Positions 20,780 through 33,834 of a stretch of DNA of 64,000 nt are shown here, piece by piece; position 1 is the stretch's first letter; each line of letters opens with the position of its first letter. The position numbers and the translations under genes are program-made. The notes below the pieces were generated by a model that saw only the letters and a list, made by a program, of their open reading frames with translations, did not search any database and had not been told where the DNA came from. This DNA comes from an uncultured Bacteroides sp. (GTDB taxonomy: Bacteria; Bacteroidota; Bacteroidia; Bacteroidales; JACABE01). The stretch covers positions 99,049-163,048 of the forward strand of contig CAYRBL010000001.1 of the NCBI GenBank assembly GCA_964422385.1, given 5' to 3'.

Positions 20780-20806
20780 ATAAAAAGGAGACCCAACTGG
20801 ATCTCC
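20778..20806 (-). terminator. rho-independent terminator-like hairpin at 3' end of tRNA array
   Basis: Minus sense AGGAGAtccagttggGTCTCCT followed by TTTATTT. Confidence 0.5.
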
Positions 20807-20811
20807 TTAGC

Positions 20812-20882
20812 CGAAAGTGGGGGGCTCGAACCCCAACCTTTTCCGTGACAGGGAAATATGCAAACCATTACACCACACCCTC
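20812..20882 (-). tRNA. tRNA-Asp(GTC)-like
   Basis: T-arm TGGGG/TTCGAGC/CCCCC, anticodon arm TTTCC-CTGTCAC-GGAAA; acceptor stem needs G-U pairs, exact ends uncertain. Confidence 0.45.
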
Positions 20883-20952
20883 GTTGTGCAGATTCCTTTT
20901 AACCTGCGAAGCCAACTTAGATAAATCTAAGATTTAAATAGTGTCGTTATTG

Positions 20953-21044
20953 TATCTAAGGTGGGGATCGAACCCACGATGTTCACCACAAAGGGTATAA
21001 GATTTTAAGTCTTATGCGTTTCAGCCAAACTTCGCCACTTAGAC
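20953..21044 (-). tRNA. tRNA-Leu(TAA), type II
   Basis: Acceptor GTCTAAG/CTTAGAT, anticodon loop CTTAAAA, long variable arm, T-arm GTGGG-TTCGATC-CCCAC, discriminator A. Confidence 0.7.
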
Positions 21045-21517
21045 ATCTTCTTTTTTATTACGACCCCTATAATTATCGGTAAAAGCGTGACAATTAGGAC
21101 ATAAAATTTGTAAATTTTCTATTCTTAAATCATCTTTAATTCCATTTATATGATGAAGTTCTAATGCTATTGGTTCTTCTAACCACTTAGAATTATTACA
21201 AATTTCACACTTGTGTTCTTTAACTCCTTCTTTTAATAATCTTTCTCTTAAATGAGTTGAATTAATAAACTTTGAATTTTCTATTAAAATTTCAGTTAAA
21301 GGTTGTGCAGATTTAATAGGTTTATATCTATCACCTTGATTCCAAGCAGCTCCTGTAAAATGAGTAGTATCTAAATCAAATTCTTTTATCTTTCTTTTAA
21401 CTGTATCGTAATTAGATCCTCCTGCATAGAGGCCTAAGTGCGCATAACTTCTGCCATTGATAAACTGGTTTTAACAGCAGCAATAAATTGTTCATCGGTA
21501 TATTTTCTACTTTTCAT
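21039..21517 (-). pseudogene. HNH homing endonuclease, frameshifted (1-nt deletion after codon 27), inserted in tRNA array
   Basis: MKSRKYTDEQFIAAVKTSLSMAEVMRT-stop, then next frame LGLYAGGSNYDTVKRKIKEFDLDTTHF...LELHHINGIKDDLRIENLQILCPNCHAFTDNY; homologous to intact HNH ORFs at 31417 and 32871; stop codon overlaps tRNA-Leu 5' end. Confidence 0.7.
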
Positions 21518-21620
21518 ATATTATATATTAATACACAAAGATATAAAAAATATTTGAGATAAACAATAAAAATCTAAAAAATTTGAAATTTTAGATTAAA
21601 ACATACTTTAATCTGCTGCA

Positions 21621-21653
21621 TCTACCAATTCCGCCATCCGGACATTGGTTATT
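21621..21653 (-). ncRNA. tRNA 5'-half fragment (type II Leu-like acceptor plus D-arm), truncated
   Basis: GTCCGGA-TG-GCGGAATTGGTAGATGC-A-GCAGA then unrelated hairpin; no matching 3' half found. Confidence 0.35.
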
Positions 21654-22273
21654 TAATGAATGTCCATGTTGGGAGTTTTCCGAATAGAGTCATAAATACT
21701 ATTATTATCATTAATAATACAGTTAATACTCCAATTCTATCACTATTAAACTCAATCATTTCGGCTATAGTTTTAGGTGTAGAAATAAATGTGTACTTAA
21801 ATAATTTCTTTAATATTTTCATAATTTATTTATTTTTTTTTTATAAATAGAGCCTGCGACTGAATCTTTAATGCGCAGGCTCTAAAAAGTTTTTAACTTA
21901 AAAACTTAGTAAACGGTTTGAATGTCGTGGACGAACTACGCCTTTTTTGATGTAGTACAAAAAACGCTAAAAACTGTATTTATAGGTAAAATAACGAACC
22001 TTGTGTTTACCTAACACAAAAGACATTTTGTTGTAGTACAAAATAGTAAACTGCTACCCGTATGGTAAGGATAGCCCAACCTCAAAACTGTCACGATAGT
22101 CTTGTGCATCGCTTTTGGTATGGTCAAAAGATAATCCTCTTAATGTTATGGAACAATAAGTAAAACCTTACAGTTATGTACTGTATCAACATTCTATTTC
22201 CTATAGTGATATAGACAAACTCTGTTACGTTCACGTTGTAACCACGGCAACCTTTTAAAGAAAAGTGCAAACT

Positions 22274-22348
22274 TGGTTGCCCTGAAAGGAATCAAACCTC
22301 TTCCGCACGGACCAAAACCGTATGTACTAATCGTTATACGACAGGGCA
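22274..22348 (-). tRNA. tRNA-Gln(TTG) with encoded CCA
   Basis: Acceptor TGCCCTG/CAGGGCA, anticodon loop TTTTGGT, 3' ACCA encoded. Confidence 0.65.
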
Positions 22349-22447
22349 ATATTAATTTCTCTCGTACAGTACCCATCGAAACTGTATAGTTGGTCTGACT
22401 AGCTTTCACCTCCTAGGAGATCTTACGTTCTTTACCAAGAGAAATTG

Positions 22448-22565
22448 TGGCGAGGGTAGGAATCGAACCTACGTTGTAATTATTCACTGTAATTTTGAAG
22501 TTGTTTATGTTTTGCTGTATATGCTCTCAAGTCAGAGCACCCTAATCCATCGTTTCAACCTCGCC
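22448..22565 (-). ncRNA. tRNA-like element, 118 nt, with ~50-nt AT-rich insertion between anticodon-region hairpin and T-arm
   Basis: Perfect acceptor GGCGAGG/CCTCGCC 118 nt apart, T-arm GTAGG-TTCGATT-CCTAC; anticodon-region hairpin GCTCT/AGAGC has a 6-nt loop. Confidence 0.45.
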
Positions 22566-22596
22566 GAGTTTTTATCTGTCTTTCCAGATCGTCTTG

Positions 22597-22667
22597 CGGG
22601 AATAGTAGGAATCGAACCTACGCCCTTTGGTTAACAGCCAAGCGCTCGACCTTCGAGCTACATTCCC
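22597..22667 (-). tRNA. tRNA-Asn(GTT)
   Basis: Acceptor GGGAATG/TATTCCC, D-stem GCTC/GAGC, anticodon loop CTGTTAA, T-arm GTAGG-TTCGATT-CCTAC. Confidence 0.75.
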
Positions 22668-22788
22668 AGTGGGTGTTTAACGGGAGTCGAACCCGTGATG
22701 TGTCATTAACTGTACCAGAACCACAATCTGGCGACTTCGACCTACTAGACTATATTTACCATATTATAAGACTTGGTAAACCTTATTG
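22668..22788 (-). ncRNA. tRNA-like element (His-like anticodon arm CCAGA-TTGTGGT-TCTGG plus canonical T-arm) lacking recognisable 5' acceptor strand
   Basis: T-arm ACGGG-TTCGACT-CCCGT and GTG anticodon hairpin present; no complementary 5' acceptor within 120 nt. Confidence 0.35.
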
Positions 22789-22860
22789 AGCAGGTAGAGG
22801 GAATCGAACCCTCGTCCTCGGTTTGGAAGACCAACGCACTAACCACTGTGCTACACCTGC
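22789..22860 (-). tRNA. tRNA-Gly(TCC)
   Basis: Acceptor GCAGGTG/TACCTGC, D-stem GCAC/GTGC, anticodon loop CTTCCAA, T-arm GAGGG-TTCGATT-CCCTC. Confidence 0.8.
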
Positions 22861-22866
22861 GTTAAA

Positions 22867-23259
22867 CTAAATTAAACTAACTTTATATGGTAGAAATTTA
22901 GCATTTAAAGTTAATTGAGTTTTTGATGTAATTTCTATTCTTGGAATAGAATAACAATCTCCAGCTTCAGTTAAAACAAACAACAAATCGGAACTATTTT
23001 CAGAAAAATCTTTAATTGTGGTTACATTTTTATTTCCAGAACTAGTTCGTAAACCAACTTGAAAATAATTATCTCTAAAAGCTTTAGTTGTTTTAACTTG
23101 AACTTTTAATAAATTTGTACCTGTATCTACTATTAAATCATAATCTTGTGTATCAGTAATTGGAACTGATATAGTTCAACATAACTTAGAATAATAAGCC
23201 ATTGCATAACACATTCCTATATTTCCTTGTTGATTTGAATTTGTTGTATGTTCAAACAT
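22867..23259 (-). pseudogene. ORF interrupted by a single in-frame TGA (minus-strand codon at 23176-23178); PD-(D/E)XK-like small protein if read through
   Basis: MFEHTTNSNQQGNIGMCYAMAYYSKLC-TGA-TISVPITDTQDYDLIVDTGTNLLKVQVKTT...; same frame on both sides of TGA. Confidence 0.5.
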
Positions 23260-24323
23260 AATTTTTAATTTTAATTTTATTTCAATCTGGCGCCATCTCC
23301 GGATCTGGAGATTCTATATCATTTTCTACATAATATTCATTTGTAAAGCCTAAATCATGATCAAAACAAATTCCATCAGGTAAACCATTTACCATAATCC
23401 AATGACAGAAACCAACATATGTTTTAACCCATACTACTTCACAATCTTTGCCTATTGGTGAAAAATTCAACCAATCGTCTTCAAATGGATTTCTATAATC
23501 ATCTAACCATAGTAATACTTTCTTCATTATAAACCTGCTTTAATTTTTGTTTGTATATTTCTTACTGTTGTAAGAGTTTCTTCATCTATTTGAGTTAAAT
23601 ATTCTTCTGAGCATTTAATCAAAGATAAATATTCAGAAAAAACAATTAGCTCTCCACAGTAGAAACAGATAGATATATCTCCAGGATCTGGAGCTCCATT
23701 TTTTCCACTATGTGCATCTAAATCATGCCCACAGTGTGGACACACTTGTTCTTCTAAACGAGTTGTTTCCATTATTTTACTAAATTTATCCAATCAGTAT
23801 CTTCTGGCATTATTTCTATTTCGACATTATGTTTTTTAGCTTTTACCATAATGTCGTTGAGTACGCCTTGTGAATACAGACTCGTACCATAACAATTATG
23901 ACCTATCACACATCTATATACAGAACCTGAATAACCAATGAAATCAATATAATCATCTTCGTGTATATTAACTTCTTTGATACCGCTGTTTAAGCGCCAG
24001 CTATCTTCACCTAAATATCCGCCGTACCAAGTTCCGTAAACTTTGTATATAGGTTTATTACCATCTGTTATTTTTATAATAATCCATTTATCAGGTGTTT
24101 CCATTATTCAGGATTTTTAAAATTCTGTAATTCAATACTCTCCAATTTTTGAAAAGTAGTTTTAGATACTGGAGGTAATCCAGTTATTTCATTAATAATT
24201 TTAAACCCGCCACATACTGTACAGGTTTGATAACAACTACTTGTAGTTGTATCAGATATTTTACCAGTTCCATTACATAAAGGACATATTTGCCACATAG
24301 TTATTTTATTTTAAGTTTTTAAG

Positions 24324-24406
24324 CACGCCTGCTAGGATTCGAACCCAGGTGAGATTTCTCTGTTAGTTTTGGAGACTAATGCCATCAACCACTCGGCCAC
24401 AGACGT
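24324..24406 (-). tRNA. type-II (Ser-like D-arm, 14-nt variable arm) tRNA with anticodon CCA
   Basis: D-arm TGGCCGAGTGGTTGATGGC, anticodon arm TTAGT-CTCCAAA-ACTAA, T-arm CTGGG-TTCGAAT-CCTAG, discriminator G. Confidence 0.55.
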
Positions 24407-24648
24407 ATATTTATTCTTCAGGTCCTGACATTATATCAAATTGATCACCTATAACATTAATTGTTCCCGCTAAAGTTAAAATACAAGATTTCAACCATTC
24501 TTCGGTTCTACCATCCATTGCTTTAACTTGCTCTATTAAATCTAAATCTTCAAATACACGATTTCCCCATACACCATCTTCTTCTTGACTTCGGAAATAT
24601 ATTCCCGATAAATTTCTTTTTTCTTTCATATCATCTTCATTTTAATTG

Positions 24649-24721
24649 TGATTCCTAAGCGACTCGAACGCTTATCCTTACATTCGTAGTGTAAAATTCT
24701 AATCCATTGAACTAAAGAACC
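24649..24721 (-). tRNA. tRNA-Arg(ACG)
   Basis: Acceptor GGTTCTT/AGGAATC (two G-U), anticodon loop CTACGAA, T-arm AAGCG-TTCGAGT-CGCTT. Confidence 0.65.
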
Positions 24722-24941
24722 TTCTTTTAAATTTAATTAATAGATAAATTCCTAATAAACAAAACATTAAAATTGTTCCGTTACCAATAGGTAAAGAACG
24801 TGGTTTAACTACTTGACTAGGAGCTACAGTGTTGTGAATTGTGTTGTTACTAATTGTTTTCATTGATTTTTTAATTATTTATTTATTAGAGTGTAGTAGT
24901 GAACGTTACACTTGAGGTTACTACACGTATTATCCTCTTTG

Positions 24942-25023
24942 TACCCTCTGTGGGACTCGAACCCACACGCCCGAAGGCACTAGATCCTAAATCTAGCGCG
25001 TCTACCAGTTCCGCCAAGAGGGC
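24942..25023 (-). tRNA. tRNA-Leu(TAG), type II
   Basis: D-arm TGGCGGAACTGGTAGACGC, anticodon loop TTTAGGA, variable arm TGCCTTCGGGCGT, T-arm GTGGG-TTCGAGT-CCCAC. Confidence 0.8.
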
Positions 25024-25465
25024 CTTTAGAAAAGAGGATAACCGCATTTGAGACCGACAGAGTCCCCATAATGACTGTCCTGAAGTGCAAATGTTCACCA
25101 CATATGGCTGTGATTGTTATCCTCTTTAAACGAATTGTAGCCTTGTATACTACATGCTCCCTTTAGCTAGCCACTAACCATTAGTGTAGAGATTCGTTAT
25201 TTTAAAATCTTTGATAAAATTTAATGTACAAAGCTTGTTGTCTAATTCCATATTGTCTTGTTAAGACGTTAGGTATTAAATCTTCATTAACTACTTGAGC
25301 TACCCGTTTTGACATTTTTTCAGCATCAAAACTTATGAATCTACCTTTAATTTCAATACCTCCTGAAATTTTAAGAATAGCATCAGCTAACTCTTCTACC
25401 GTTTCACATTGATTTATTAATTGAAATTTTTCTAATTCTGTCATAATTTTATGTTTAATTGTTTG

Positions 25466-25549
25466 AGCCGCCTGTCAGATTCGAACTGACGTGTCTGTAA
25501 AGATCTACATTACAAGTGTAGCGCAATCGACCACTATGCGAAGGAGGCG
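25466..25549 (-). tRNA. tRNA-Thr(TGT)-like with 14-nt variable region and imperfect acceptor stem
   Basis: Anticodon arm CTACA-CTTGTAA-TGTAG, T-arm GTCAG-TTCGAAT-CTGAC; acceptor pairing has two mismatches. Confidence 0.4.
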
Positions 25550-25805
25550 TGGGCGGGGTCTATTTTTTAAGTGGTACACCCCTTGCCACTATATTTTTCT
25601 ACTTACTTTGTGTACCGTTTTATGTATAGCATATGAAACTAATAAAAATATAAACTTTGTTTCGCGAGTTTTACCTCCCAAGATGTAAACATCCGTTTTA
25701 CCACATAAAATAGGCTTGCTTTCGATAATTAATCCAGGCAAGAAATAAGTTAAATTGACAATTACGGCATTGTCACCAACCAGGCGTCTTACTCTTCGAG
25801 TAGCG

Positions 25806-26216
25806 CTATTTCCAAGCTATAAAGTATCTAATTCTAGAAGCGTAATTTGGCGTTCTTGAAGCATAATTTTTAATTACAATCTTTACTTGTTGTGTCCAAG
25901 TACAACTAAATGATATAATAGATATGCATGATGTATTAGCATCTTTCATAAAGAGTGAACCATCAGATAAATAAATAAACGCATCTACGTCAGTAACATC
26001 ATTATCATTACTACAAGCTACAACTGAATAAGAATTTCCAGAAGAGAAATTCATATAAGTATAAGCAGTACCACCTTGAACTAAGTCGGCATGTTGTTCA
26101 TTACCAATATTCCAACCATAAGATTGATATAAAGCTTTATATCTTTCATAATTTGTTTGAGAAAACACACACATTGATGTTATTACCAACATCATAATTA
26201 CCATAAATTTTTTCAT
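25806..26216 (-). CDS. secreted hypothetical protein (signal peptide)
   Basis: N-terminal MKKFMVIMMLVITSMCVFSQ hydrophobic signal. Confidence 0.5.
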   Translation of the reverse strand: MKKFMVIMMLVITSMCVFSQTNYERYKALYQSYGWNIGNEQHADLVQGGTAYTYMNFSSGNSYSVVACSNDNDVTDVDAFIYLSDGSLFMKDANTSCISIISFSCTWTQQVKIVIKNYASRTPNYASRIRYFIAWK

Positions 26217-26417
26217 TGTTTTTATTTTTTTTATTTTTACTAATGAGTTCCGTCTGATAAAGAAATTCCGTGGTCTAATCCCATTTTGAAATCTCTTACT
26301 TCATCTTTACTCAATTTTCCAATCACAATACCAACTTCATTTCCTATATCAGATGCATCTCCTTTATATTTACATTCAGTTAGTTGTTTAATTATTGCCG
26401 CTTTTACTAATTCAAAT

Positions 26418-26726
26418 TTATTTTCCATCAATCAATGCTTTAGTTATATTAAAAATTGCATCATACTCTCGGTATCCACACACTAATGCTTTATTTCTTG
26501 CAGCAAATGTTGCGGTTTTAAATGTATCTAAAAGTCCTTTCGATATACGAAGTACTCTTAAATGATAACGGCTATCAGTTTTTGAAAAGAATTGAGCTCT
26601 TACTTTATAATTATTAAATTCTCTATCAAGGAATCTATCCTCTGTATCAATGTAAACAACTGTAAGTTTACCAATGATTTTCTCCCACCAAGTTTGTGGT
26701 AATACGTCTAACACTCTTTCATCCAT
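26418..26726 (-). CDS. hypothetical protein (start trimmed to internal Met to avoid tRNA overlap)
   Basis: ORF track start 26774 overlaps tRNA-Met; internal ATG at 26726 (MDERVLD...) is the likely start. Confidence 0.45.
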   Translation of the reverse strand: MDERVLDVLPQTWWEKIIGKLTVVYIDTEDRFLDREFNNYKVRAQFFSKTDSRYHLRVLRISKGLLDTFKTATFAARNKALVCGYREYDAIFNITKALIDGK

Positions 26727-26743
26727 AATATTCAATTTAATTG

Positions 26744-26815
26744 TCACGAAGGGTAGATTTGAACTACCGACCAATACCTTATGAGAGTACTGCTCTACCG
26801 CTGAGCTACATCGTG
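26744..26815 (-). tRNA. tRNA-Met/Ile2(CAT)
   Basis: D-stem GCTC/GAGC, anticodon loop CTCATAA, T-arm GGTAG-TTCAAAT-CTACC. Confidence 0.6.
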
Positions 26816-27759: not shown

Positions 27760-28185
27760 TTAGTTTTTCTAAAAATATTTCTACTAAATCATCATTATAA
27801 AAGCAATCATATTCAGTTGCTCGTAATTCATCTGTTTCTTTTGGATATAATTTATAAGATTCATTAAAAATGCTTTGTCCATATCTTATATGCTTTGGTC
27901 GAAACTTAGCCATTTCTTTAATATCCCCAATTTTATTCATAATCATTAATTTTTAATTTTTAATTTGCGGAGAAACTCATATACGATATGAACTCATTTA
28001 CACGAGCGCATTGCTTAGCAGGCAAGCCCTATTCCCCATAGGTTGTCTTCTCCAATAATAAAGGGCTTCAACAGCTAGCCCTTATTCCCCCCGTTTTCGA
28101 CTGTACCAATGCCCGTATAATAGTTATTAGAAACATTCCTTCAAAGAAATAATAACTTTCTATTCGTAGCTGGTGGGATATAGTA

Positions 28186-28262
28186 AAGAGAAGAGGACTC
28201 GAACCCCCACGCCGTGTTTAGCGACCTACTGTTTTCAAGACAGTTCCACTTAGGCCATCTGT
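28186..28262 (-). tRNA. tRNA-Ser(TGA)-like, type II; acceptor stem not resolved
   Basis: Anticodon arm ACTGT-CTTGAAA-ACAGT, long variable region, T-arm GGGGG-TTCGAGT-CCTCT. Confidence 0.4.
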
Positions 28263-28281
28263 GGGTTATACTTCCTAATTA

Positions 28282-28653
28282 CTACTGACCACTAGCTTCG
28301 TCTTCGTCAGCAACGTCTTCTTCTGATTTCCAGAGGCCTTCTAAGTCTAAATCACCATCAGTGATAAAAGGCTCAAGAACACCATAAGCTTCAGCATGAA
28401 ATGTTAAAACAGTTTCTTCAGGACTTTCTCCTCTAGCTTCAGCTATATCTAAAACTTTAGATAATGGCCATTCACTACCCCAACTTGGGACTGGATAAAA
28501 GTTTACTGCATGATTTAGTAAATACATTTTCTTATTTACTTCATCGTTAGCTACCCAAATATTTTCTGGGTCATCTCCATCTACAGTTAAGCGTACCTTA
28601 CCTTTTGGTAAAGACTCTAATGGAGTTTCATTTGTTGATCTAAATACTTTCAT
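28282..28653 (-). CDS. hypothetical acidic protein
   Basis: 123-aa ORF. Confidence 0.5.
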   Translation of the reverse strand: MKVFRSTNETPLESLPKGKVRLTVDGDDPENIWVANDEVNKKMYLLNHAVNFYPVPSWGSEWPLSKVLDIAEARGESPEETVLTFHAEAYGVLEPFITDGDLDLEGLWKSEEDVADEDEASGQ

Positions 28654-28674
28654 ATCTATAATTTTAATTGTTTG

Positions 28675-28746
28675 TGATCCGACCGAGACTTGAACTCGGA
28701 ACCTATGCCTTAAAAGGGCACAGCTCTACATTGGAGCTACCGGATC
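28675..28746 (-). tRNA. tRNA-Lys(TTT)
   Basis: Acceptor GATCCGG/TCGGATC, anticodon loop CTTTTAA, T-arm CCGAG-TTCAAGT-CTCGG. Confidence 0.8.
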
Positions 28747-28821
28747 TTTAAATAAGCACTCGCAGATAGCGACATTTACGAGTGCTTTATAGCCGTAGCT
28801 ATAACGGTCCTAAACCGTAAG

Positions 28822-28896
28822 CGGGACTACCTGGAGTTGAACCAGGATCTCTAGATTTTCAGTCTAGCGCGAACTGACCACCTGCGCTACAGTCCC
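28822..28896 (-). tRNA. tRNA-Phe(GAA)
   Basis: Acceptor GGGACTG/TAGTCCC, anticodon arm CTAGA-CTGAAAA-TCTAG, T-arm CCTGG-TTCAACT-CCAGG. Confidence 0.65.
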
Positions 28897-29027
28897 CTTT
28901 GTGTGAGTAATTTATTAGACTACTCACGTCTCTTCCTACTGGATAACTTGTAATTAAATACAGATAGTGTACATCTATCGTCATTGAGACATCGCTGGAT
29001 ACTTTCGTAGAGCCTAAGCGAACACCG

Positions 29028-29102
29028 TCGAGAATCAGGGATTCGAACCCCGGACCTTATCCTTGTAAGGGATCTGCTCTGAACCAACTGAGCTAATCCT
29101 CG
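29028..29102 (-). tRNA. tRNA-Val(TAC)
   Basis: Acceptor CGAGGAT/ATTCTCG, D-arm GCTCAGTTGGTTCAGAGC, anticodon loop CTTACAA, T-arm CGGGG-TTCGAAT-CCCTG. Confidence 0.65.
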
Positions 29103-29108
29103 AATTAG

Positions 29109-29185
29109 TTGGGAAGGCGGGAATTGAACCCGCGTGCAACCAATTAACCTTTCTACTGCTTATCAGGCAGAGGGTATACTTCCCA
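29109..29185 (-). ncRNA. tRNA-like element (acceptor and T-arm canonical, GAT-anticodon-like hairpin, no recognisable D-arm)
   Basis: Acceptor TGGGAAG/CTTCCCA, T-arm GCGGG-TTCAATT-CCCGC, hairpin TCTGC-CTGATAA-GCAGT; 77 nt. Confidence 0.4.
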
Positions 29186-29277
29186 GTTAACGCTTCTTTT
29201 TGAGGTGGAAGCGAAACCTTTTTACTTCTTCTTTGGTAGAGTGGACCAAATGCCATATGGGAGTGAAGTAAACTCCG

Positions 29278-29351
29278 TGGAGCTGAAGGGGCTTGAACCC
29301 TCGGCCTTCTGAGTGCAAATCAGACGCTCTAGCCAACTGAGCTACAGTCCC
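29278..29351 (-). tRNA. tRNA-Ala(TGC)
   Basis: G3-U70 wobble in acceptor, anticodon arm TCTGA-TTTGCAC-TCAGA, T-arm GAGGG-TTCAAGC-CCCTT. Confidence 0.8.
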
Positions 29352-29601
29352 ATAGTTACTCAACTACTTCCCAACTTGTTATATCATCAGGAGCCTGATT
29401 CCAAAACATTGGGTATATTTGAGTACTTTCAAGATCAATTTTAACAAAAAAATCTCCCATCGTCCAACCTTGCAAATAAACTGGAACATTTTCAAGTCCA
29501 TAACGAGGTAAACTAGAACGTTCATAAACGTCTTGAGGGAGTTTTACTTTTACCTTTTGCAGATTCATATCTGAAGGTAAATCATTAAGTGTTTTCATCT
29601 T

Positions 29602-30000
29602 TTATAATTTAGTTATTGATTTAAAAGGTAATTGCCATTCCTGACCTTTATCACATAATATGCAACCAACTGCTGTTTCATAGTTAATTGCATCAAATTC
29701 TTCTTTATCATCATCAAGATGTACAACAAAATCAGGATTTTCTAAAAAGAATTCTGATTTATCTTGCATATTTGTAAAATGAATATAATTTCTAGGAATA
29801 CCTAATCGAGAAGCTACATTAAATAAGTCTTTATGTCCTTTAAGAACCCATTTTGGATCAGCATAACGAGTAGGATCTTCAAATCTACTCGTTACTATAT
29901 GAACTTCATCACCTCTAGCTATTAATTCTTTGGCAATTTTTCTTACAGATTTTCTTGATAATGTGCTATCAAAATCAAAACTAATCTTCATGAGTCCCAT
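29602..30000 (-). CDS. HAD-superfamily hydrolase/phosphatase
   Basis: N-terminal FDFDSTL (DxDxT motif). Confidence 0.6.
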   Translation of the reverse strand: MGLMKISFDFDSTLSRKSVRKIAKELIARGDEVHIVTSRFEDPTRYADPKWVLKGHKDLFNVASRLGIPRNYIHFTNMQDKSEFFLENPDFVVHLDDDKEEFDAINYETAVGCILCDKGQEWQLPFKSITKL

Positions 30001-30128
30001 GTGTTATTTCTGGCAACAATAATAATGCCCATAAAGGCATTAATGATCTAGATACGTAAATAGCTATAGCTATCAACCCAAAAAATCCTAAGTAAATTAT
30101 TGCTGCGGTTAAAAAATTCTTGTCCATA

Positions 30129-31157
30129 TTAAAATGCTAATGAGTATTGACTACGTTTAAGTACAATCTTAGTATCTTCATCAATATCAAATATAATTTG
30201 GGCATCTGTTACTACATAATGATACTTCCATAGTTCTATTTCTGAATATTCAGGAAGAAGTGCTTTCAATTCAGGATCTACATCCTCATCGCTTCCGTTA
30301 TAGTATGAAACTACAAATGGTTGACGTTTATAATTGAAACTTCTACCATCATACTTATGTACGACTTCTTTATGAATAACTGCTGCTGAATAATATTCAA
30401 CTTCTTCAGTTAAGTTTAAGTGTGAAGCACAAACAATTGCATCTTCATCAAAAAGATTTACTTCTTTAATTACAGAAGTAAGTACATCCATCGTAATCAT
30501 ATCAAACTTATCAACGAAATCTTCCATAGAAGCACGTCTGTGTTTATGAACCAATAAATCATCAATAATTTCTTTAATAATTTCTGGAGCAAGTTTCACA
30601 TAAAGCTTATGATATTTAATACGATTTAGCCGGTTTTGCAATTTATTGTTAATATTTGCAGGGTTATTTGCAGTTAATAAAAATATTAACTTGGTATGGT
30701 ACATACCATCCATTAATGTAAGTACTGATTGACTATGTTCTTCGTGTTGATAAACTTTTTCAAATTCATCAATAAAGATAATAGTATTGCTAAATACCGG
30801 ATTTGATAAGAAAGCTTCAAAATCTGGACCATGAAAATGTTCAGTTATGAAGATAACAGGGAATTGTGACTTTACACAAAATAATTGTGCTGCAATCGTT
30901 TTACCTGTTCCTTTTACTCCGGAGAGTAAGATACCCATATTCTTTTCAGAATTATGTGCATAAGATTTAATCCATCGGTTAATAAAATCAAAATTACCAT
31001 ATAGCTTAGTTGGTAATTTAAAATCGTCTTGAACTTTAAGAAAAAATCCAGTTCTTTCATCGAATTGCAAAGAATAATTACCCACTGGTAATCTATCATA
31101 CGATGCAGTAATTTCACCTAATGTTAAGGTGTTGTTGTTTCTAATAATCACACTCAT
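30129..31157 (-). CDS. AAA+ ATPase (second copy)
   Basis: Walker A GVKGTGKT, Walker B IIFIDEFEK, sensor-1 LTAN. Confidence 0.75.
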   Translation of the reverse strand: MSVIIRNNNTLTLGEITASYDRLPVGNYSLQFDERTGFFLKVQDDFKLPTKLYGNFDFINRWIKSYAHNSEKNMGILLSGVKGTGKTIAAQLFCVKSQFPVIFITEHFHGPDFEAFLSNPVFSNTIIFIDEFEKVYQHEEHSQSVLTLMDGMYHTKLIFLLTANNPANINNKLQNRLNRIKYHKLYVKLAPEIIKEIIDDLLVHKHRRASMEDFVDKFDMITMDVLTSVIKEVNLFDEDAIVCASHLNLTEEVEYYSAAVIHKEVVHKYDGRSFNYKRQPFVVSYYNGSDEDVDPELKALLPEYSEIELWKYHYVVTDAQIIFDIDEDTKIVLKRSQYSLAF

Positions 31158-31183
31158 TTTATTATCTATTTAATTTATTCTTG

Positions 31184-31256
31184 AGTTTCGGCTCGGATTC
31201 AAACCGAGGAATAGGAGATTTGCAGTCAACCGCGTTAATCACTTCGCCACCGAAAC
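31184..31256 (-). tRNA. tRNA-Cys(GCA)-like (weak anticodon stem)
   Basis: Perfect acceptor GTTTCGG/CCGAAAC, T-arm CTCGG-TTTGAAT-CCGAG, loop CTGCAAA. Confidence 0.45.
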
Positions 31257-31262
31257 ATATTG

Positions 31263-31337
31263 TGGACCTTGAGGGGATTGAACCCACGACCTTCGCCTTA
31301 TGAGGGCGCTGCTACTAACCAACTGAGCTAAAGGTCC
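31263..31337 (-). tRNA. tRNA-Met(CAT)
   Basis: Acceptor GGACCTT/AAGGTCC, D-arm TAGCTCAGTTGGTTAGTAGC, anticodon loop CTCATAA. Confidence 0.7.
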
Positions 31338-31345
31338 TTTTATTG

Positions 31346-31380
31346 TGACTCAGGCTGGACTCGAACCAGCGACCGATGGT
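31346..31380 (-). ncRNA. tRNA 3' fragment (T-arm plus acceptor 3' strand only)
   Basis: GCTGG-TTCGAGT-CCAGC-CTGAGTC-A only 12 nt downstream (minus sense) of tRNA-Arg 3' end; no 5' half. Confidence 0.4.
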
Positions 31381-31382
31381 TG

Positions 31383-31454
31383 TGTTCCTAGAGGGATTCG
31401 AACCCCCACGAAATCCTTAGAAGGGATTGATGCTATCCATTACATCATAGGAAC
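31383..31454 (-). tRNA. tRNA-Arg(TCT)
   Basis: Acceptor GTTCCTA/TAGGAAC, anticodon arm AATCC-CTTCTAA-GGATT, T-arm GGGGG-TTCGAAT-CCCTC. Confidence 0.7.
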
Positions 31455-32055
31455 GTTTGTCAGAAAATGGTTTATATCGAGTTTCGCGAGCACTATTTTT
31501 ATTTTTAGATTTATAAGTATCTAATTGTGAATCACAATTTGGACAAATACACCTATAGTTTTCTCTAGTATTATTTGCAGCATTACCATCAATATGATCT
31601 AAAATCATAACTAAGGGCTTACTATTCCACATAGAATCTAATCCACAAATAATACATTTATTGTCTTGCTCCTCAAGAATAAATCTTTTAACCAGTCTTG
31701 GATTAAAATTTGCCCTTTGGTATTCTTCTGGTGAAGTAAGAAAATATTCATATTTTTCTCTACTCTTATGTTCAAATTCACATTTATTATTACAATATAT
31801 GTTATTTCCTTTATGACTAATATCTTCACCACAATTTAAACAAAATTTTTTCTTCCCAGACCCTTTGTTAAAAGTCTCAAGTTCGTTAATTTTTCTTTTA
31901 ATTGGCAAATCAATTCCTAATCTTTTAGCAACTTTTTTAATATTACTACCAGTACAATTATATCTTCTACCAATTTCTTCATAAGAAATTCCTTGATTAA
32001 GAATTAAATCTTCTAAATTTTCTTTTTCTACTTCCCATTTACTATTCATATACAA
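31417..32055 (-). CDS. HNH homing endonuclease with N-terminal helix-turn-helix
   Basis: EEIGRRYNCTGSNIKKVAKRLG; LDHIDGNAANNTRENYRCICPNCD (HNH core); 3' end overlaps tRNA-Arg(TCT) by ~38 nt. Confidence 0.8.
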   Translation of the reverse strand: MYMNSKWEVEKENLEDLILNQGISYEEIGRRYNCTGSNIKKVAKRLGIDLPIKRKINELETFNKGSGKKKFCLNCGEDISHKGNNIYCNNKCEFEHKSREKYEYFLTSPEEYQRANFNPRLVKRFILEEQDNKCIICGLDSMWNSKPLVMILDHIDGNAANNTRENYRCICPNCDSQLDTYKSKNKNSARETRYKPFSDKRSYDVMDSINPF

Positions 32056-32412
32056 TTTTTATTTTTAATTAAACATACACAAAGGTACGAATAATTTTTG
32101 AAATAAATTGTATACGAAATAGTTAAAAATTGTTAAATAGTATTTTTTTAAGCCTTAATTTCAATTACATGACCCAATGCATTTCTGTAATGAGTTCCAA
32201 ATTCAAGTTTAGCTTTTTCTGCATTAGACAATTTTCTTGTCCGTTCTTTTACCATAGGTTTTTTACCTGAATGTCCTTTTGCCATAATAGTTATTTTTAT
32301 TTATTAATCATCAGAGAAATGTCCAGGAATTGATTGATACCAATCTGGATTAGGATAATCATCATCTGAAAAATGTTTAATTACGTCTTCCATAATAATT
32401 ATTTTTAATTTG

Positions 32413-32496
32413 TCGGGATGGCGGGATTCGAACCCACGTTTGAATACTCTCTCTTGCTCCCAAAGCAAGCATGTTGACCTACTACACCACATCCCG
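32413..32496 (-). tRNA. tRNA-Pro(TGG) with 15-nt variable region
   Basis: C1-G72 acceptor CGGGATG/CATCCCG, anticodon arm CTTGC-TTTGGGA-GCAAG, T-arm GTGGG-TTCGAAT-CCCGC. Confidence 0.65.
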
Positions 32497-32699
32497 TGGT
32501 TACCTCGGAGACACTCCGAGGATTTGTTCTACGACATCGCTGCCTTAGAAAAAAAGATATACTAGTAGCGATTGCATTTTGCAGCAATACTTTAAATACG
32601 AAGGAATCCCAGAGTCACTTTCCTCATATACTACTAGAGCCCTCTGGACCTAGACTGTTTCATCTTCTTATTGTCAGGATTATGGTTTTGCTGACTTTG

Positions 32700-32772
32700 T
32701 TGCGGGGGCACGAATCGAACGTGCGTAGTCCAAGGTTTATGAGACCGGAGGCGAACCAACACGCTCCCCACG
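32700..32772 (-). tRNA. initiator-like tRNA-fMet(CAT)
   Basis: C1-A72 mismatch, 3' end CCCCCGCAAC as in bacterial tRNA-fMet, anticodon loop CTCATAA, T-arm GCACG-TTCGATT-CGTGC. Confidence 0.55.
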
Positions 32773-32786
32773 TGTGTTATATTTTG

Positions 32787-32860
32787 TTGCGGAGACTCGA
32801 CTCGAACGAGTGACCATCGGCTTATGAGACCGCTAAGCTACCAACTGCTAACACTCCGCA
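32787..32860 (-). tRNA. tRNA-Met(CAT)
   Basis: Acceptor TGCGGAG/CTCCGCA, anticodon loop CTCATAA, T-arm ACTCG-TTCGAGT-CGAGT. Confidence 0.6.
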
Positions 32861-32870
32861 ATTTATTTTA

Positions 32871-33479
32871 TTAAGAATTAAGAATTCTAGTTGTTTCTCT
32901 TAACTCTTTTAATGATGTTCTTGTACTATTTTCATTTAAATTACCATAGTTATCTGTTAAACTATGACAATTAGGACATAATAATTCTAAATTTTCTTCA
33001 GAATTATCTAAAGCATCTCCATTAATATGATGTATTTGTACTGGTACATTTTCTGAATAAGGATTTATTTCATGCCATCCACATTTTTGACACTGATTAT
33101 TATTCTTTTCTTTAAGATATCTAACAATATATCTAGATATCCCATCTTTACCTTTTTGTCCTGAAATATTTCCTAATTTCCATTCATTAATATATTCATC
33201 ATATTCAAAATCTGTTTTACATTTTCTTGTACAAAATTTTTCTTGATTTGAATTTAATTTATTACCGCAATAATAACATAATCGTATTTCTCTACTATGT
33301 TGTTTATTAAATGTTTCAGTTTCATTTATTTTTCTTCTTTGAGGTAATTCTAATCCTAATCTTTTAGCAGCTTTCTTAATAGCATTGCCTGTTACATTAT
33401 ATTTACGACCTATTTCTTCATAGGCTAAATTTTCTTGAAAGATTAATCTTTCTAATTCTTCTTTTACATATTTGTTCAT
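32871..33479 (-). CDS. HNH homing endonuclease with N-terminal helix-turn-helix
   Basis: EEIGRKYNVTGNAIKKAAKRLG; QIHHINGDALDNSEENLELLCPNCH. Confidence 0.8.
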   Translation of the reverse strand: MNKYVKEELERLIFQENLAYEEIGRKYNVTGNAIKKAAKRLGLELPQRRKINETETFNKQHSREIRLCYYCGNKLNSNQEKFCTRKCKTDFEYDEYINEWKLGNISGQKGKDGISRYIVRYLKEKNNNQCQKCGWHEINPYSENVPVQIHHINGDALDNSEENLELLCPNCHSLTDNYGNLNENSTRTSLKELRETTRILNS

Positions 33480-33559
33480 AATTTATATATTTGTAATTCG
33501 AATACAAAGATACAAATTTTTTGAACATAAAAAGTTCGAATATTAAATTATTTGAATAG

Positions 33560-33633
33560 TAATGCATATGGGATTCAAACCCATGATTTCCACCGTGAAA
33601 GGGTGACGAATTAGATCGCTATTCTAATGCACT
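33560..33633 (-). tRNA. tRNA-Glu(TTC)
   Basis: D-stem GAAT/ATTC, anticodon arm TCACC-CTTTCAC-GGTGG, T-arm ATGGG-TTTGAAT-CCCAT. Confidence 0.7.
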
Positions 33634-33834
33634 ATGTTTTATTTTCTTTGAAAGTCTTTTCCACCACAGTTATTTACTGGAAGTAGATAAAACTTATCAC
33701 ACAAATGTTTATCTGAACTTTTTGTATAAAATTTACAAGCTTCACAATTTGGCATAACTTTAATTTTTTATTAGTGGAAAATGGATACAAAATTACTAAA
33801 AATAAATTTAAAAATTTACTAAAATCATAAAAAT

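Follow-up and report, generated by a model that had tools for sequence, protein, structure and literature searches.

Bacterial and phage tRNA arrays contain homing endonucleases (PMC8421152), and in phage T4 the gene for the homing endonuclease SegB, which recognises a motif of tRNA genes, belongs to a tRNA cluster (PMC2330249). Phage tRNAs also evade tRNA-targeting defences by sequence changes (PMC10264068, PMC11464382, PMC11555353), and YrlA RNAs, which are tRNA mimics, have been found in phages (PMC4201824). As at the locus described here, an HNH endonuclease gene lies within a tRNA array in crAss-like phage cr116_1; there a tRNA-Arg(TCT) comes 8 nt further on. We analysed a 64,000-nt window (the whole stretch of DNA to which all positions refer) from a 163-kb contig of 32% G+C. 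The region is of a known kind with a few under-described twists: it is the tRNA array of a large phage which, judging from its sequence, is probably turned over by free-standing homing-endonuclease genes (probability about 0.7). Bacteroidota-style promoter boxes hint at the host.

Composition of the array

Every gene of the array lies on the minus strand. With default settings, ARAGORN called 20 tRNAs within 20810-33633, 19 of which also scored above the Rfam threshold, and Rfam contributed two extra members, both weak (22672-22759, 37.3 bits; 29109-29185, 35.7 bits). Relaxed ARAGORN settings yielded four further elements: a CAT tRNA (32772-32699), a Ser(TGA)-like element (28274-28183), Ser(GCT) (28053-27967) and the element at 22565-22447. 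The total of about 26 agrees with the first-pass annotation, which had described a large array of about 25 tRNA genes, and since the automated finders do not fold every member as a standard tRNA, the oddity that it saw in the array stands. The regular members are:

20810-20883, minus: tRNA-Asp(GTC), canonical (ARAGORN; Rfam 51.4 bits)
22274-22348, minus: tRNA-Gln(TTG) (ARAGORN; Rfam 48.5 bits)
22596-22667, minus: tRNA-Asn(GTT), canonical (ARAGORN; 61.3 bits)
22788-22860, minus: tRNA-Gly(TCC), canonical, 7 nt past the PD-(D/E)XK gene (ARAGORN; Rfam 69.3 bits)
24648-24721, minus: tRNA-Arg(ACG) (ARAGORN; Rfam 55.8 bits)
24941-25023, minus: tRNA-Leu(TAG) (ARAGORN; Rfam 56.8 bits)
26743-26815, minus: tRNA-Met(CAT) (ARAGORN; Rfam 65 bits)
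28674-28746, minus: tRNA-Lys(TTT) (ARAGORN; 57.9 bits)
28821-28896, minus: tRNA-Phe(GAA) (ARAGORN; 56.1 bits)
29027-29102, minus: tRNA-Val(TAC) (ARAGORN; 63.3 bits)
29277-29351, minus: tRNA-Ala(TGC) (ARAGORN; Rfam 64.8 bits)
31183-31256, minus: tRNA-Cys(GCA), U73, weak anticodon stem with 3/5 pairs (ARAGORN; Rfam 47.1 bits)
31262-31337, minus: tRNA(CAT), Met or Ile2 (ARAGORN; Rfam 55.8 bits)
32786-32860, minus: tRNA(CAT), 11 nt past an HNH gene (ARAGORN; Rfam just 28.4 bits)
33559-33633, minus: tRNA-Glu(TTC) (ARAGORN; Rfam 55.4 bits)

The decoding set is near-minimal, with one U34 or G34 tRNA for each codon box, and its anticodons suit the codon usage of genes in the window, which is A/U-rich; the window also encodes a tmRNA (ARAGORN). 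Weak or missing stems had been ascribed to 31184-31256, which is correct for the anticodon stem, but this is otherwise an ordinary Cys(GCA) to both tools.

tRNA stumps and nuclease genes

Two tRNA stumps each adjoin an HNH gene, which is followed by an intact tRNA gene of the same isotype:

21610-21643, minus: orphan tRNA-Leu 5' half (alignment to Leu tRNAs)
21039-21517, minus: HNH endonuclease gene with a -1 frameshift near 21437 (three-frame translation)
20952-21044, minus: tRNA-Leu(TAA), 93 nt, intact (ARAGORN; Rfam)
31346-31381, minus: orphan 3' portion of an earlier tRNA-Arg(TCT) (aligned with the Arg(TCT) of the relative)
31417-32055, minus: HNH-type endonuclease gene, 212 aa (50% identity to the annotated cr116_1 HNH)
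31382-31454, minus: tRNA-Arg(TCT), intact (ARAGORN; Rfam 59 bits)

The break lies at the anticodon loop in both stumps. The Leu stump consists of the acceptor strand, D arm and 5' anticodon stem, ending on U33, and no matching 3' acceptor strand was found across the 64-kb window. A 5' fragment had been reported earlier at 21621-21653; the fragment is real, but it runs from 21643 to 21610. The frameshift in the neighbouring HNH gene marks either a pseudogene or an assembly error; the repaired protein matches Pfam HNH (E 4e-5), the gene has its own promoter-like box (TATCTTTGT, 21535-21543), and its best homolog is in Dulem virus 42, where no tRNA adjoins it. The start of the intact Leu(TAA) falls within the final 6 nt of this broken gene. 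Compared with the copy in a distant relative (58% identity to the window phage in a neighbouring protein), Leu(TAA) is identical at 92 of 93 positions, against 52-79% for other tRNA pairs. Upstream of it the sequences of the two phages are unalignable, and the relative's near-identical gene has no HNH gene alongside. This identity supports lateral exchange, which we would count in favour of turnover, and unusually strong constraint could be an alternative to transfer.

The stump at the Arg site extends from the 3' anticodon stem through the variable loop and T arm to the 3' acceptor strand. A hand count on the alignment gives about 29 of 37 positions in common with the relative's Arg(TCT); the stump also resembles the Arg(TCT) of the relative L271, and no 5' partner was found nearby. 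The bare 3' fragment previously placed at 31346-31380 is confirmed exactly, as the 3' part of an Arg(TCT). The HNH gene here is preceded by a TACCTTTGT box (32079-32087) and had no Pfam match of its own; its closest homolog among GenBank phages is that of cr116_1 (50% amino-acid identity). The initial 38 nt of the intact Arg(TCT) overlap the end of the HNH reading frame, and this tRNA is 71% identical to the cr116_1 Arg(TCT) behind the homologous HNH versus 60% to the relative's, a modest margin.

Other nuclease genes of the array are:

22867-23259, minus: PD-(D/E)XK (PDDEXK_5) endonuclease gene (Pfam E 1.6e-16)
32871-33479, minus: HNH endonuclease gene, 202 aa (Pfam HNH E 3.3e-5)

This last HNH gene has a TATCTTTGT box at 33504-33512. 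The window has five TAYCTTTGT boxes, and three of them sit 18-25 nt upstream of the three HNH starts. The PD-(D/E)XK gene, which a truncated cREC gene directly precedes, carries an in-frame TGA at 23178-23176, so that two nuclease genes are broken, one by frameshift and one by a stop.

Irregular members

The remaining elements depart from the canonical tRNA in different ways:

24323-24406, minus: tRNA-Trp(CCA), 84 nt (ARAGORN; Rfam 53.7 bits)
25465-25548, minus: tRNA-Thr(TGT), 84 nt (ARAGORN; Rfam 50.4 bits)
32412-32496, minus: tRNA-Pro(TGG), 85 nt (ARAGORN; Rfam 61.8 bits)
27967-28053, minus: tRNA-Ser(GCT), non-canonical yet conserved (ARAGORN relaxed; missed by default finders)
28183-28275, minus: tRNA-Ser(TGA), apparent pseudogene, 3' acceptor strand gone (ARAGORN relaxed; tRNA-Sec model 28.2 bits)
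22672-22759, minus: degenerate tRNA-His(GTG) (Rfam 37.3 bits, alignment)
29109-29185, minus: Ile(GAT)-like element (Rfam 35.7 bits, alignment)
32699-32772, minus: initiator-like tRNA(CAT), irregular (ARAGORN relaxed)
22447-22565, minus: tRNA-like RNA (ARAGORN with introns allowed; fold z = -2.97)

As the first-pass annotation had it, the surplus bases of the Pro, Thr and CCA tRNAs lie in variable regions of 14-15 nt. That of Trp(CCA), 14 nt with a 3-bp hairpin, accompanies a class II-like D loop, A1-U72 and G73; Thr(TGT) combines 14 nt with the D loop GGTCGA and a single U4xC69 mismatch, and Pro(TGG) an unstructured 15 nt with C1-G72 and A73. Isotype identity elements are retained in all three. 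The distant relative's Trp, at 82 nt, bears the extra arm CC-GAAA-GG, and its Pro (74 nt) has an anticodon arm identical to that of the window's Pro; the distribution of the arm is patchy, Pro and Thr being short in both relatives and Trp in L271. In a sample of phage loci, 497 distinct tRNAs belonged to isotypes whose variable loop is normally short; 36 of them (about 7%) were at least 80 nt long, and these long tRNAs were enriched for the D-loop motif GGT[CT]GA (p = 3e-8). Extra-arm tRNAs are a structural class common in phage arrays, with a matching D-loop signature, and the Pro, Thr and Trp members appear functional rather than products of decay. They are not the outcome of local remodelling, as the earlier proposal of active remodelling of tRNA genes would have it: the class recurs among phages, and the Trp arm is common to the distant relative.

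Ser(GCT) likewise appears to be a functional if irregular tRNA and no decay product. With G73, a long variable arm and ATCGTAT as its T loop, it preserves its stems by compensatory changes against the relative's copy, has 56 distinct phage homologs, and folds at minimum energy into the cloverleaf (z = -2.63). It belongs to a phage tRNA-Ser family that Mukai et al. reportedly described as 8/4.

Relatives carry canonical His, Ile and Ser(TGA) genes, the His of the distant relative at the equivalent place and the Ile between Ala and Val. The window's His-like element, earlier described at 22668-22788 as lacking a 5' acceptor, is confirmed as anomalous: it has three acceptor non-pairs, a broken D stem and a 17-nt variable region, and it lacks fold stability (z = -0.1). 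The Ser(TGA)-like element (fold z = +0.7) is demonstrably a deletion product against the closer relative L273, in which Ser(TGA) is intact and from which about 95 nt are deleted in the window copy. Both look like pseudogenes, a call that rests on relatives 58-82% similar because there is a single genome of this phage. The Ile-like element, already noted as deviant, pairs perfectly in its acceptor stem and T arm and carries the anticodon GAT, with 4 nt in place of the 15-nt D arm and an 18-nt insertion in the variable region. In the initiator-like tRNA(CAT) the first acceptor pair is mismatched (C1xA72), the D stem has 3 bp and the anticodon stem is bulged. This tRNA may still be functional; it and the Ile-like element are both irregular and of uncertain status. 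No nuclease gene adjoins the Ser(TGA) pseudogene or the Ile-like element.

Probable endonuclease-driven turnover

From the anatomy, homologies and comparisons with relatives, which are direct observations, we infer a course of events that includes cleavage specificity, direction of transfer, and the expression and charging of these genes. Each HNH gene has its own promoter-like box and leads straight into an intact tRNA gene; the nuclease would cut the resident tRNA gene in a genome that lacks it, and repair would copy the nuclease gene and its linked same-isotype tRNA into the cut genome. Repair that was homologous on one side only would leave half of the resident tRNA gene, which would account for the Leu 5' and Arg 3' stumps. 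Redundant or damaged neighbours would decay next (the His-like element, the 3'-deleted Ser(TGA) and perhaps the fMet-like copy), as would the nuclease genes themselves, one by frameshift and one by in-frame stop. The adjacency of HNH and tRNA genes says little by itself, since some open reading frame closely precedes nearly every tRNA of the array. Decay driven by homing endonucleases, which the first-pass annotation had suggested, gains its support from stumps that end at the anticodon loop and adjoin an HNH gene followed by an intact tRNA of the same isotype, from the likeness of the Arg stump to the Arg(TCT) of related phages and of the intact Arg(TCT) to that of cr116_1, from the two broken nuclease genes and from the Ser(TGA) deletion. 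Against turnover by these nucleases speak the Dulem virus 42 homolog with no adjoining tRNA, the relative's Leu(TAA) with no HNH gene alongside, and the Ile-like element and Ser(TGA) pseudogene with no neighbouring nuclease gene.

The tRNA-like element and alternative explanations

Element 22447-22565 is a tRNA-like RNA or mimic, neither a decoder nor an intron-bearing tRNA. ARAGORN and Rfam did not call it at default settings, relaxed ARAGORN labelled it (22565-22447) Ser(TGA) with a 26-nt intron, and the tmRNA model matched both ends only (19.6 bits). The perfect acceptor stem noted earlier at 22448-22565 is confirmed (7 bp), as is a non-tRNA middle enclosed by it and a perfect T arm: there is no D arm, and a hairpin with a 6-nt loop at the place of the anticodon arm is followed by about 50 AT-rich nt bearing the motif CTGA..AGA..ACAGCAA. 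Possibly, though we hold it doubtful, this element, and perhaps the Ile-like one, is a functional mimic and not a dead gene, its acceptor/T-arm half being kept for RNase P, RNase Z, the CCA-adding enzyme or a Ro-like partner, with kinship to Y-RNA-like modules upstream of the tmRNA. A divergent middle framed by a perfect acceptor stem and T arm is consistent with this, as is the stable fold, and the motif recurs in five tandem units (42041-41461) where chance would give 0.2 matches; two of these units match the YrlA model (E about 1e-4; acceptor hairpins 7/7). Those matches, however, score 30-32 bits against a family threshold of 69 and leave the Ro-binding helix unmatched; no Ro60 gene was seen among the scanned window proteins, the element is single copy, and in the relative nothing corresponds to it between Asn and Gln.

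Less probable, and in our view unlikely, is that the irregular members are variants selected in anti-defence remodelling, the extra arm and altered D loop making Trp, Thr and Pro poor substrates for host tRNA-cleaving defences, and degenerate or anticodon-less tRNA-like RNAs serving as decoys. Such escape has precedent in phages (PMC10264068, PMC11464382, PMC11555353). A conflict over tRNA is plausible because the window encodes a PNKP-type phosphatase, a cyclic-phosphate receiver domain and the tmRNA, and because two RNA ligases, PNKP and Thg1 adjoin the same AAA gene in relatives. The retained identity elements, the Trp arm shared with the relative, the recurrence of extra-arm tRNAs with a matched D-loop type among phages, and tRNA-like RNAs with 4-6-nt 'anticodon' loops in both phages point the same way. 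Against it stand the patchiness of the arm and the canonical-looking anticodon loops of the intact tRNAs, and the broken acceptor stems of the His-like and Ser(TGA)-like elements fit decay better than design.

That the stumps and chimeric elements arose from reads mis-joined over repeated tRNA-like sequence is very improbable. The window does come from a metagenome contig, and 20129-23889 lies outside the coverage of a second assembly, but where that assembly, made independently from another run, does extend (34035-23889) it is 100% identical, so that the array is no artefact of assembly over this stretch, which takes in the Arg stump, the two HNH cassettes that are intact, and the fMet-like, Ile-like and Ser elements. 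Between the two versions of the contig a single base differs, and it falls in a T run beyond the array.

Bacteria are not known to have the splicing endonuclease on which short tRNA introns depend. Least credible of all is that the interrupted elements represent genes with introns, or split or circularly permuted genes, whose products are spliced or joined into working tRNAs: ARAGORN does set its 26-nt 'intron' in 22565-22447 at the canonical site past base 37, and upstream of the tmRNA 3' halves do precede matching 5' halves with 7/7 acceptor pairing, but the inserts (26-60 nt) are much below group I intron size, Rfam found no intron or ribozyme at them, partner halves for the Leu and Arg stumps are absent from the 64 kb, and the permuted arrangement (T arm, then closed acceptor hairpin, then D arm) is how YrlA mimics are known to be built (PMC4201824).

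Further observations

The Ser(TGA) pseudogene, the Ser(GCT) tRNA, the HNH frameshift and the in-frame stop in the PD-(D/E)XK gene had been overlooked in the first-pass annotation. A further gene marks the array's upstream edge:

33835-34818, minus: zinc-ribbon protein (Pfam DUF4379; DUF723 in precomputed hits)

To us its C-terminal sequence looks endonuclease-like.

The tRNA array and its relatives

The window derives from a 163-kb metagenome contig with a G+C content of about 32%, and its genes are typical of a large phage, including a family A DNA polymerase, helicases and a primase-like protein. Under default settings ARAGORN identifies 20 tRNA genes between 20810 and 33633, all on the minus strand, and relaxed settings recover four further elements:

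tRNA genes and tRNA-like elements called by ARAGORN in the array
20810-33633, minus strand, default settings, first half: Asp, Leu-TAA, Gln, Asn, Gly, Trp, Arg-ACG, Leu-TAG, Thr, Met
20810-33633, minus strand, default settings, second half: Lys, Phe, Val, Ala, Cys, Met, Arg-TCT, Pro, Met, Glu
32772-32699, minus strand, relaxed settings: initiator-like CAT tRNA
28274-28183, minus strand, relaxed settings: Ser(TGA)-like element
28053-27967, minus strand, relaxed settings: Ser(GCT)
22565-22447, minus strand, called solely with introns allowed: tRNA-like element

We defined canonical tRNAs as those scoring at or above the 29-bit gathering threshold of Rfam RF00005 and aligning to the full cloverleaf. 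This definition covers 19 of the 20 ARAGORN genes (47-69 bits, the Pro, Thr and Trp genes among them), and Met 32860 (28.4 bits), the initiator-like (fMet-like) element, both Ser elements and element 22447-22565 fall below it. RF00005 adds two weak, marginal matches, a His-like element at 22672-22759 (37.3 bits) and an Ile-like element at 29109-29185 (35.7 bits). Judged on structure (seven acceptor pairs, a D arm, an anticodon stem of 5 bp closing a 7-nt loop, and a T arm), the His-like, Ile-like and Ser(TGA)-like elements and 22447-22565 fall short of a tRNA. The first-pass annotation had described an array with non-canonical members, and this observation was largely correct. An assembly artefact is largely excluded, as 34035-23889 is identical in an independent assembly. 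The anticodon set, with one U34 or G34 tRNA per codon box, fits an A/U-rich codon usage.

Among GenBank phages we found no close relative and one short HNH match only, and the only relatives recovered by searching IMG/VR and JGI metagenomes are 58% identical in the AAA protein encoded at 30129-31157. The best large one, hereafter “the relative”, comprises IMG/VR contigs of 213 and 112 kb with that 58% identity. Its array is syntenic, reading Glu, Pro, fMet, Arg-TCT, Cys, Ala, Ile, Val, Phe, Lys, ... in its first part and Trp, Leu-TAG, Ser-TGA, Tyr, Met, Thr, Gly, His, Asn, Gln, Leu-TAA, Asp in its later part. A search with a 177-aa array protein returned distant phages only. A 123-aa protein led to a closer relative fragment, L273, with a nucleotide identity of 78-82% and the order Ala-Ile-Val-Phe, 123-aa protein homolog, Ser(TGA). 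Another relative, L271, carries 24 canonical tRNAs.

Most array tRNAs have a small reading frame 3-15 nt before them or overlapping them (20800-33650). Few of these small tRNA-linked genes are common to the window and the relative, which marks the array as a hotspot of gene turnover composed of gene-plus-tRNA modules.

Nuclease genes and half-gene stumps

The array contains three HNH genes and one PD-(D/E)XK nuclease gene, with a fifth nuclease-looking gene at its upstream edge. Two of the HNH genes match Pfam HNH (E 3e-5 and 4e-5), and the PD-(D/E)XK gene matches PDDEXK_5 (E 1.6e-16); the 212-aa gene at 31417-32055 has no Pfam match and is 50% identical to an annotated HNH. Each HNH gene is directly followed by an intact tRNA. 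Of the window's five TAYCTTTGT boxes, which we take to resemble the Bacteroidota -7 promoter element, three belong to the HNH genes, one lying 18-25 nt before each start. Two of the nuclease genes are broken, one HNH gene by a frameshift and the PD-(D/E)XK gene by an in-frame TGA. We rejected an alternative genetic code for this TGA because the sole Trp tRNA has a CCA anticodon and neighbouring genes stop at TGA; a pseudogene is simpler. Separately, a cyclic-phosphate receiver (cREC) gene (23527-23282, minus strand) matches the first half only of its Pfam profile and ends about 20 nt before the PD-(D/E)XK gene (23259-22867, minus strand), by which it appears to have been truncated.

At three places an HNH gene stands beside a tRNA gene that is broken or irregular:

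21643-21610, minus strand: Leu 5' half ending at U33; the broken HNH gene comes next, then Leu(TAA)
32055-31417, minus strand: HNH gene overlapping the start of Arg(TCT), which is followed by a 36-nt Arg 3' part at 31381-31346
33479-32871, minus strand: HNH gene followed by a CAT tRNA, with the irregular initiator-like copy beside it

The Arg 3' part starts at the 3' strand of the anticodon stem and matches the Arg(TCT) of relatives. We dismissed a group I intron or a split gene as the source of the stumps, having found no partner halves for the Leu and Arg stumps within the window and no match to an intron family in Rfam.

The closest GenBank homolog of HNH 32055-31417 (50% identity) resides in the tRNA array of cr116_1, a crAss-like phage, where Arg(TCT) likewise follows after 8 nt, and the intact Arg(TCT) of the window has 71% identity with the cr116_1 copy versus 60% with that of the relative. 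Leu(TAA) is identical to the relative's copy at 92/93 positions, compared with 52-79% for other tRNA pairs and an unalignable upstream sequence, a pattern that strong constraint on the tRNA could also give. A host origin of this near-identical Leu(TAA) was considered and set aside, as it has no exact match among 185,579 representative genomes. In the relative's syntenic array, no nuclease gene precedes Arg(TCT), the initiator or Leu(TAA); the HNH genes that it does have lie at other places, upstream of Phe and Asn. The best homolog of the broken HNH, in Dulem virus 42, has no adjacent tRNA.

The simplest account of the stumps would be a double-strand break in a resident tRNA gene, through putative cleavage by the nuclease, followed by one-sided homologous repair from a donor carrying the nuclease gene together with a linked tRNA. 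Since nearly every tRNA of the array is closely preceded by a reading frame, adjacency of nuclease genes proves little by itself. The case for cassettes rests instead on the stumps, on the HNH-Arg(TCT) cassette held in common with cr116_1 and on the outlying identity of Leu(TAA), which together support the earlier suggestion that homing endonucleases drove the decay of tRNA genes here.

The proposal follows the same logic as T4 SegB (PMC2330249), and nuclease genes are found in tRNA arrays more generally (PMC8421152). As in the window, SegB is encoded by a free-standing gene in a phage tRNA cluster and is patchily distributed among relatives; it is inherited together with flanking tRNAs and has its target within tRNA genes, as the window nucleases would. 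SegB is, however, a GIY-YIG enzyme that recognises a T-arm motif, whereas the window genes are of HNH and PD-(D/E)XK types. Unlike in the T4 region, the putative insertions in the window left half-gene stumps broken at the anticodon loop, and each nuclease gene is paired with a same-isotype replacement tRNA, an arrangement for which we found no description in T4. The tRNA region of phage T5 also contains homing endonucleases. The region is thus a new example of an already known kind of system, and a clear natural one of selfish nuclease genes reshaping the tRNA set of a phage, in which each nuclease gene would travel with a replacement tRNA and leave behind stumps of the gene it displaced.

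Decayed and irregular copies

In L273 the Ser(TGA) gene is intact, with a GGAAGTA/TACTTCC acceptor and G73; the window's Ser(TGA)-like element retains the first ~80 nt, has lost the 3' acceptor strand with a deletion of ~95 nt relative to L273, and shows no tRNA fold (z = +0.7). The His-like element, with three acceptor non-pairs, a broken D stem and z = -0.1, occupies the slot of the relative's canonical His beside Gly. An 8/4 reading of these two elements was rejected, as pairing is poor in every register. The Ile-like element combines a perfect acceptor stem and T arm with the loss of the D arm and an 18-nt insertion in the variable region. Both the relative and L271 have a normal Ile between Ala and Val; the Ile-like segment cannot be aligned with L273 and so may derive from elsewhere. 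The initiator-like CAT tRNA at 32772-32699 keeps the C1xA72 mismatch; its D stem is 3 bp long and its anticodon stem bulged, but it may still be functional.

A Ser(GCT) tRNA with features of the 8/4 family

The Ser(GCT) gene at 28053-27967 folds into a clean cloverleaf (z = -2.63), with the T loop ATCGTAT. It has the anticodon GCT, G73 and a long variable arm with a 5-bp stem, traits of (8/4) tRNA-Ser. Mukai et al. 2017 (PMC5389517) reported such tRNAs, along with other irregular ones, from the tRNA clusters of phages, and the window gene also resembles them in its short or odd T arm. The twelve pairs of the acceptor branch can be read in two ways, a 7/5 split giving a U-G pair and an 8/4 split an A-G mismatch, and one family member parsed by hand has the 8/4 layout. 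In the relative's homolog the anticodon arm is identical, the acceptor and D stems differ by compensatory changes, and a wholly different T arm is nonetheless paired. The same anticodon arm occurs in 56 distinct phage sequences, 14 of which are called by ARAGORN at default settings. On these patterns of conservation, Ser(GCT) is a functional-looking tRNA that default finders overlook. Default finders thus miss irregular, functional-looking tRNAs such as this family while also passing over pseudogenes, and phage tRNA counts and the codon-usage inferences drawn from them can mislead as a result.

A recurrent class of tRNAs with extra arms

The tRNAs for Pro (85 nt) and for Thr and Trp (84 nt each) score well, and their surplus of 9-10 nt lies in the variable region, which measures 14-15 nt and is accompanied by class II-like D loops. 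They do not belong to class II, in which a long variable arm goes with the anticodon and identity elements of Leu, Ser or Tyr. Trp combines the pair A1-U72 with G73, Pro the pair C1-G72 with A73, and Thr the pairs G1-C72 and C2-G71. In anticodon, 1-72 pair and discriminator they carry the identity features of Trp, Pro and Thr, respectively.

Across relatives the arm is patchy, given that Pro and Thr are short in the relative (where Trp has 82 nt with a small extra hairpin and Asn 88 nt) and that Trp, Pro and Thr are all short in L271. More widely, 75 phage loci chosen solely by a shared Trp anticodon arm contain 497 distinct tRNAs of isotypes whose variable loop is normally short, and 36 of these (~7%) measure at least 80 nt. 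The D-loop motif GGT[CT]GA, common to the window's Thr, Trp and His-like element, is found in 9 of these 36 long tRNAs versus 5 of the 461 others in the same loci (p = 3e-8). Extra-arm tRNAs of other phages include Asn, Cys, His, Lys, Met and Val. When the same Trp anticodon arm was sought in cellular genomes, 19/20 Trp tRNAs measured 71-77 nt, and three of the five long tRNAs of short-loop isotypes seen there lie in dense arrays of 8-12 tRNAs. We conclude that the extra-arm tRNAs form a recurrent phage-associated structural class, rather than local damage. We found no description of such recurrent extra-arm tRNAs in the open-access literature, and the report of (8/4) tRNA-Ser (PMC5389517) does not include extra-arm Trp, Pro or Thr, which are ordinary 7/5 tRNAs.

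A parallel is provided by nematode nev-tRNAs, which likewise place a class II-like body and an extra arm under the anticodon of an amino acid with a short variable loop. The nev-tRNAs are, however, charged with leucine and so mis-decode (PMC3333845), whereas the acceptor and discriminator of the window tRNAs fit their own anticodons; the window's extra arms, whose stems comprise 0-3 bp, are far shorter as well. Given these own-isotype identity features, faithful decoding is expected for Trp, Pro and Thr, and mis-decoding of the nev type is unlikely.

Phage tRNAs are known to evade tRNA-targeting defences through anticodon-loop changes or by supplying a specific tRNA (PMC10264068, PMC11464382, PMC11555353), and the window resembles these cases in that many phage-encoded tRNAs share a genome with genes for RNA repair. 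Nuclease evasion by irregular tRNAs is plausible from this genomic context. In the window the context comprises a tmRNA alongside genes for a PNKP-type phosphatase and a cyclic-phosphate receiver domain, and in relatives it comprises RNA ligases, PNKP and Thg1. As a more specific proposal, extra-arm tRNAs (class II-like D loop, short arm, own identity elements) might constitute a distinct phage-borne class, kept because their altered shape protects them from tRNA cleavage by host defences or allows repair enzymes to recognise them as phage tRNAs, with homing-nuclease cassettes spreading such variants between unrelated phages; we regard this as a long shot, at roughly one chance in five. If extra-arm tRNAs do resist tRNA-targeting defences, they would represent a new route of phage counter-defence, and their recurrence is the most useful lead, and the most interesting loose end, of the region.

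Concerning repair genes, the window encodes a stand-alone PNKP-type phosphatase domain at 39085-38666, and in three database loci of relatives (L062, L063, L065) the AAA gene of the array adjoins PNKP, Thg1 and two RNA ligases, one of them a T4-type RNA ligase 1. This lineage thus carries a tRNA-repair toolkit.

A tRNA-like element and YrlA-like modules

Element 22447-22565 pairs perfectly in both its acceptor stem and its T arm but has no D arm. In the place of the anticodon arm it has a 7-bp hairpin with a 6-nt loop (or a loop of 8 nt), after which comes an AT-rich stretch, and its middle carries the motif CTGA..AGA..ACAGCAA. An intron-bearing tRNA was rejected, the inserts being 26-60 nt and matching no intron or ribozyme family in Rfam. 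The same motif recurs five times in tandem at 42041-41461, upstream of the tmRNA, where 0.2 occurrences are expected by chance; the wider region 42200-41340 (minus strand) contains at least five tandem units with the motif CTGAAAAGAAT-N5-CAGCAAT.

In several units of the tandem region, a T arm with its 3' acceptor strand precedes the 5' acceptor strand that pairs with it (7/7 pairs); a linker of 15-19 nt separates the two strands, and a D arm comes after them. We seriously weighed circularly permuted tRNA genes as an explanation for this order, and dropped them when the YrlA model (Rfam RF02553) matched two of the tandem units at 30-32 bits (E ~1e-4), because the YrlA layout has that same order: YrlA Y-RNA-like RNAs are tRNA mimics in which a T arm, a closed acceptor hairpin and a D arm succeed one another (PMC4201824), as they do at 41605-41479 and 41438-41364. 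The scores lie below the family threshold of 69 bits, the positions of the Ro-binding helix are non-pairs, and no TROVE domain or Ro60 was detected among the 30 window proteins scanned; we therefore name the tandem modules YrlA-like, not YrlA. Element 22447-22565 shares the motif that flanks these modules, but is itself in normal tRNA order rather than permuted. It is best read as a tRNA-like RNA of the tandem-motif family, or a remnant of one.

The relative has a protein-coding gene in place of the tandem units. The tmRNA itself, which ARAGORN places at 40963-41336, is phage-encoded (40961-41336, minus strand, 87 bits), with the tag DKKVISFARPVAVMAAA; that of the relative has the similar tag GNKTISFARTAFMAAA.

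Other RNA elements

Further non-coding elements were noticed in the array and elsewhere in the window:

32672-32582, minus strand: 91-nt stretch, 90% identical to L048:10775-10865, a locus of the relative
~20940-20893, minus strand: element between Leu(TAA) and Asp, conserved at L052:8580-8625
22446-22349, minus strand: ~100-nt stretch with the inverted repeat AATTTCTCT/AGAGAAATT at its borders and internal hairpins
22273-21830, minus strand: ~440-nt stretch with a terminator-like hairpin at its end
56460-56391, minus strand: tRNA-like gene
61987-62049, minus strand: pistol ribozyme

The surroundings of the 91-nt stretch are ~70% identical or unalignable. With a possible pseudoknot, CCAGAG..[AGGAA..CTCTGG..TTCCT], and no match in Rfam, it is a candidate new structured RNA. 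The element between Leu(TAA) and Asp contains a hairpin, CTTAGAT/ATCTAAG, that echoes the Leu acceptor strands, and thereafter GCAG-GTTAAAAGGAAT-CTGC, which reads GTGG...CCAC in the relative, amounting to two compensatory pair changes. The stretches at 22446-22349 and 22273-21830 have no Rfam match and no counterpart in the relative.

The tRNA-like gene at 56460-56391 has normal acceptor, D and T arms and a 6-nt “anticodon” loop, TTCGAT; an unrelated tRNA-like gene of the relative, L048:16280-16361, has an anticodon arm ending in a TTCG tetraloop, and both would be unable to decode. L273 carries a tRNA with a CTA anticodon (4151-4224; an amber suppressor, labelled Pyl by ARAGORN) where the window has tRNA-Lys(TTT), which hints at stop-codon recoding in the sister lineage. 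The pistol ribozyme at 61987-62049 scores 50.2 bits, over the Rfam threshold, and has a counterpart in the relative at L001:2974-3035 (41.6 bits).
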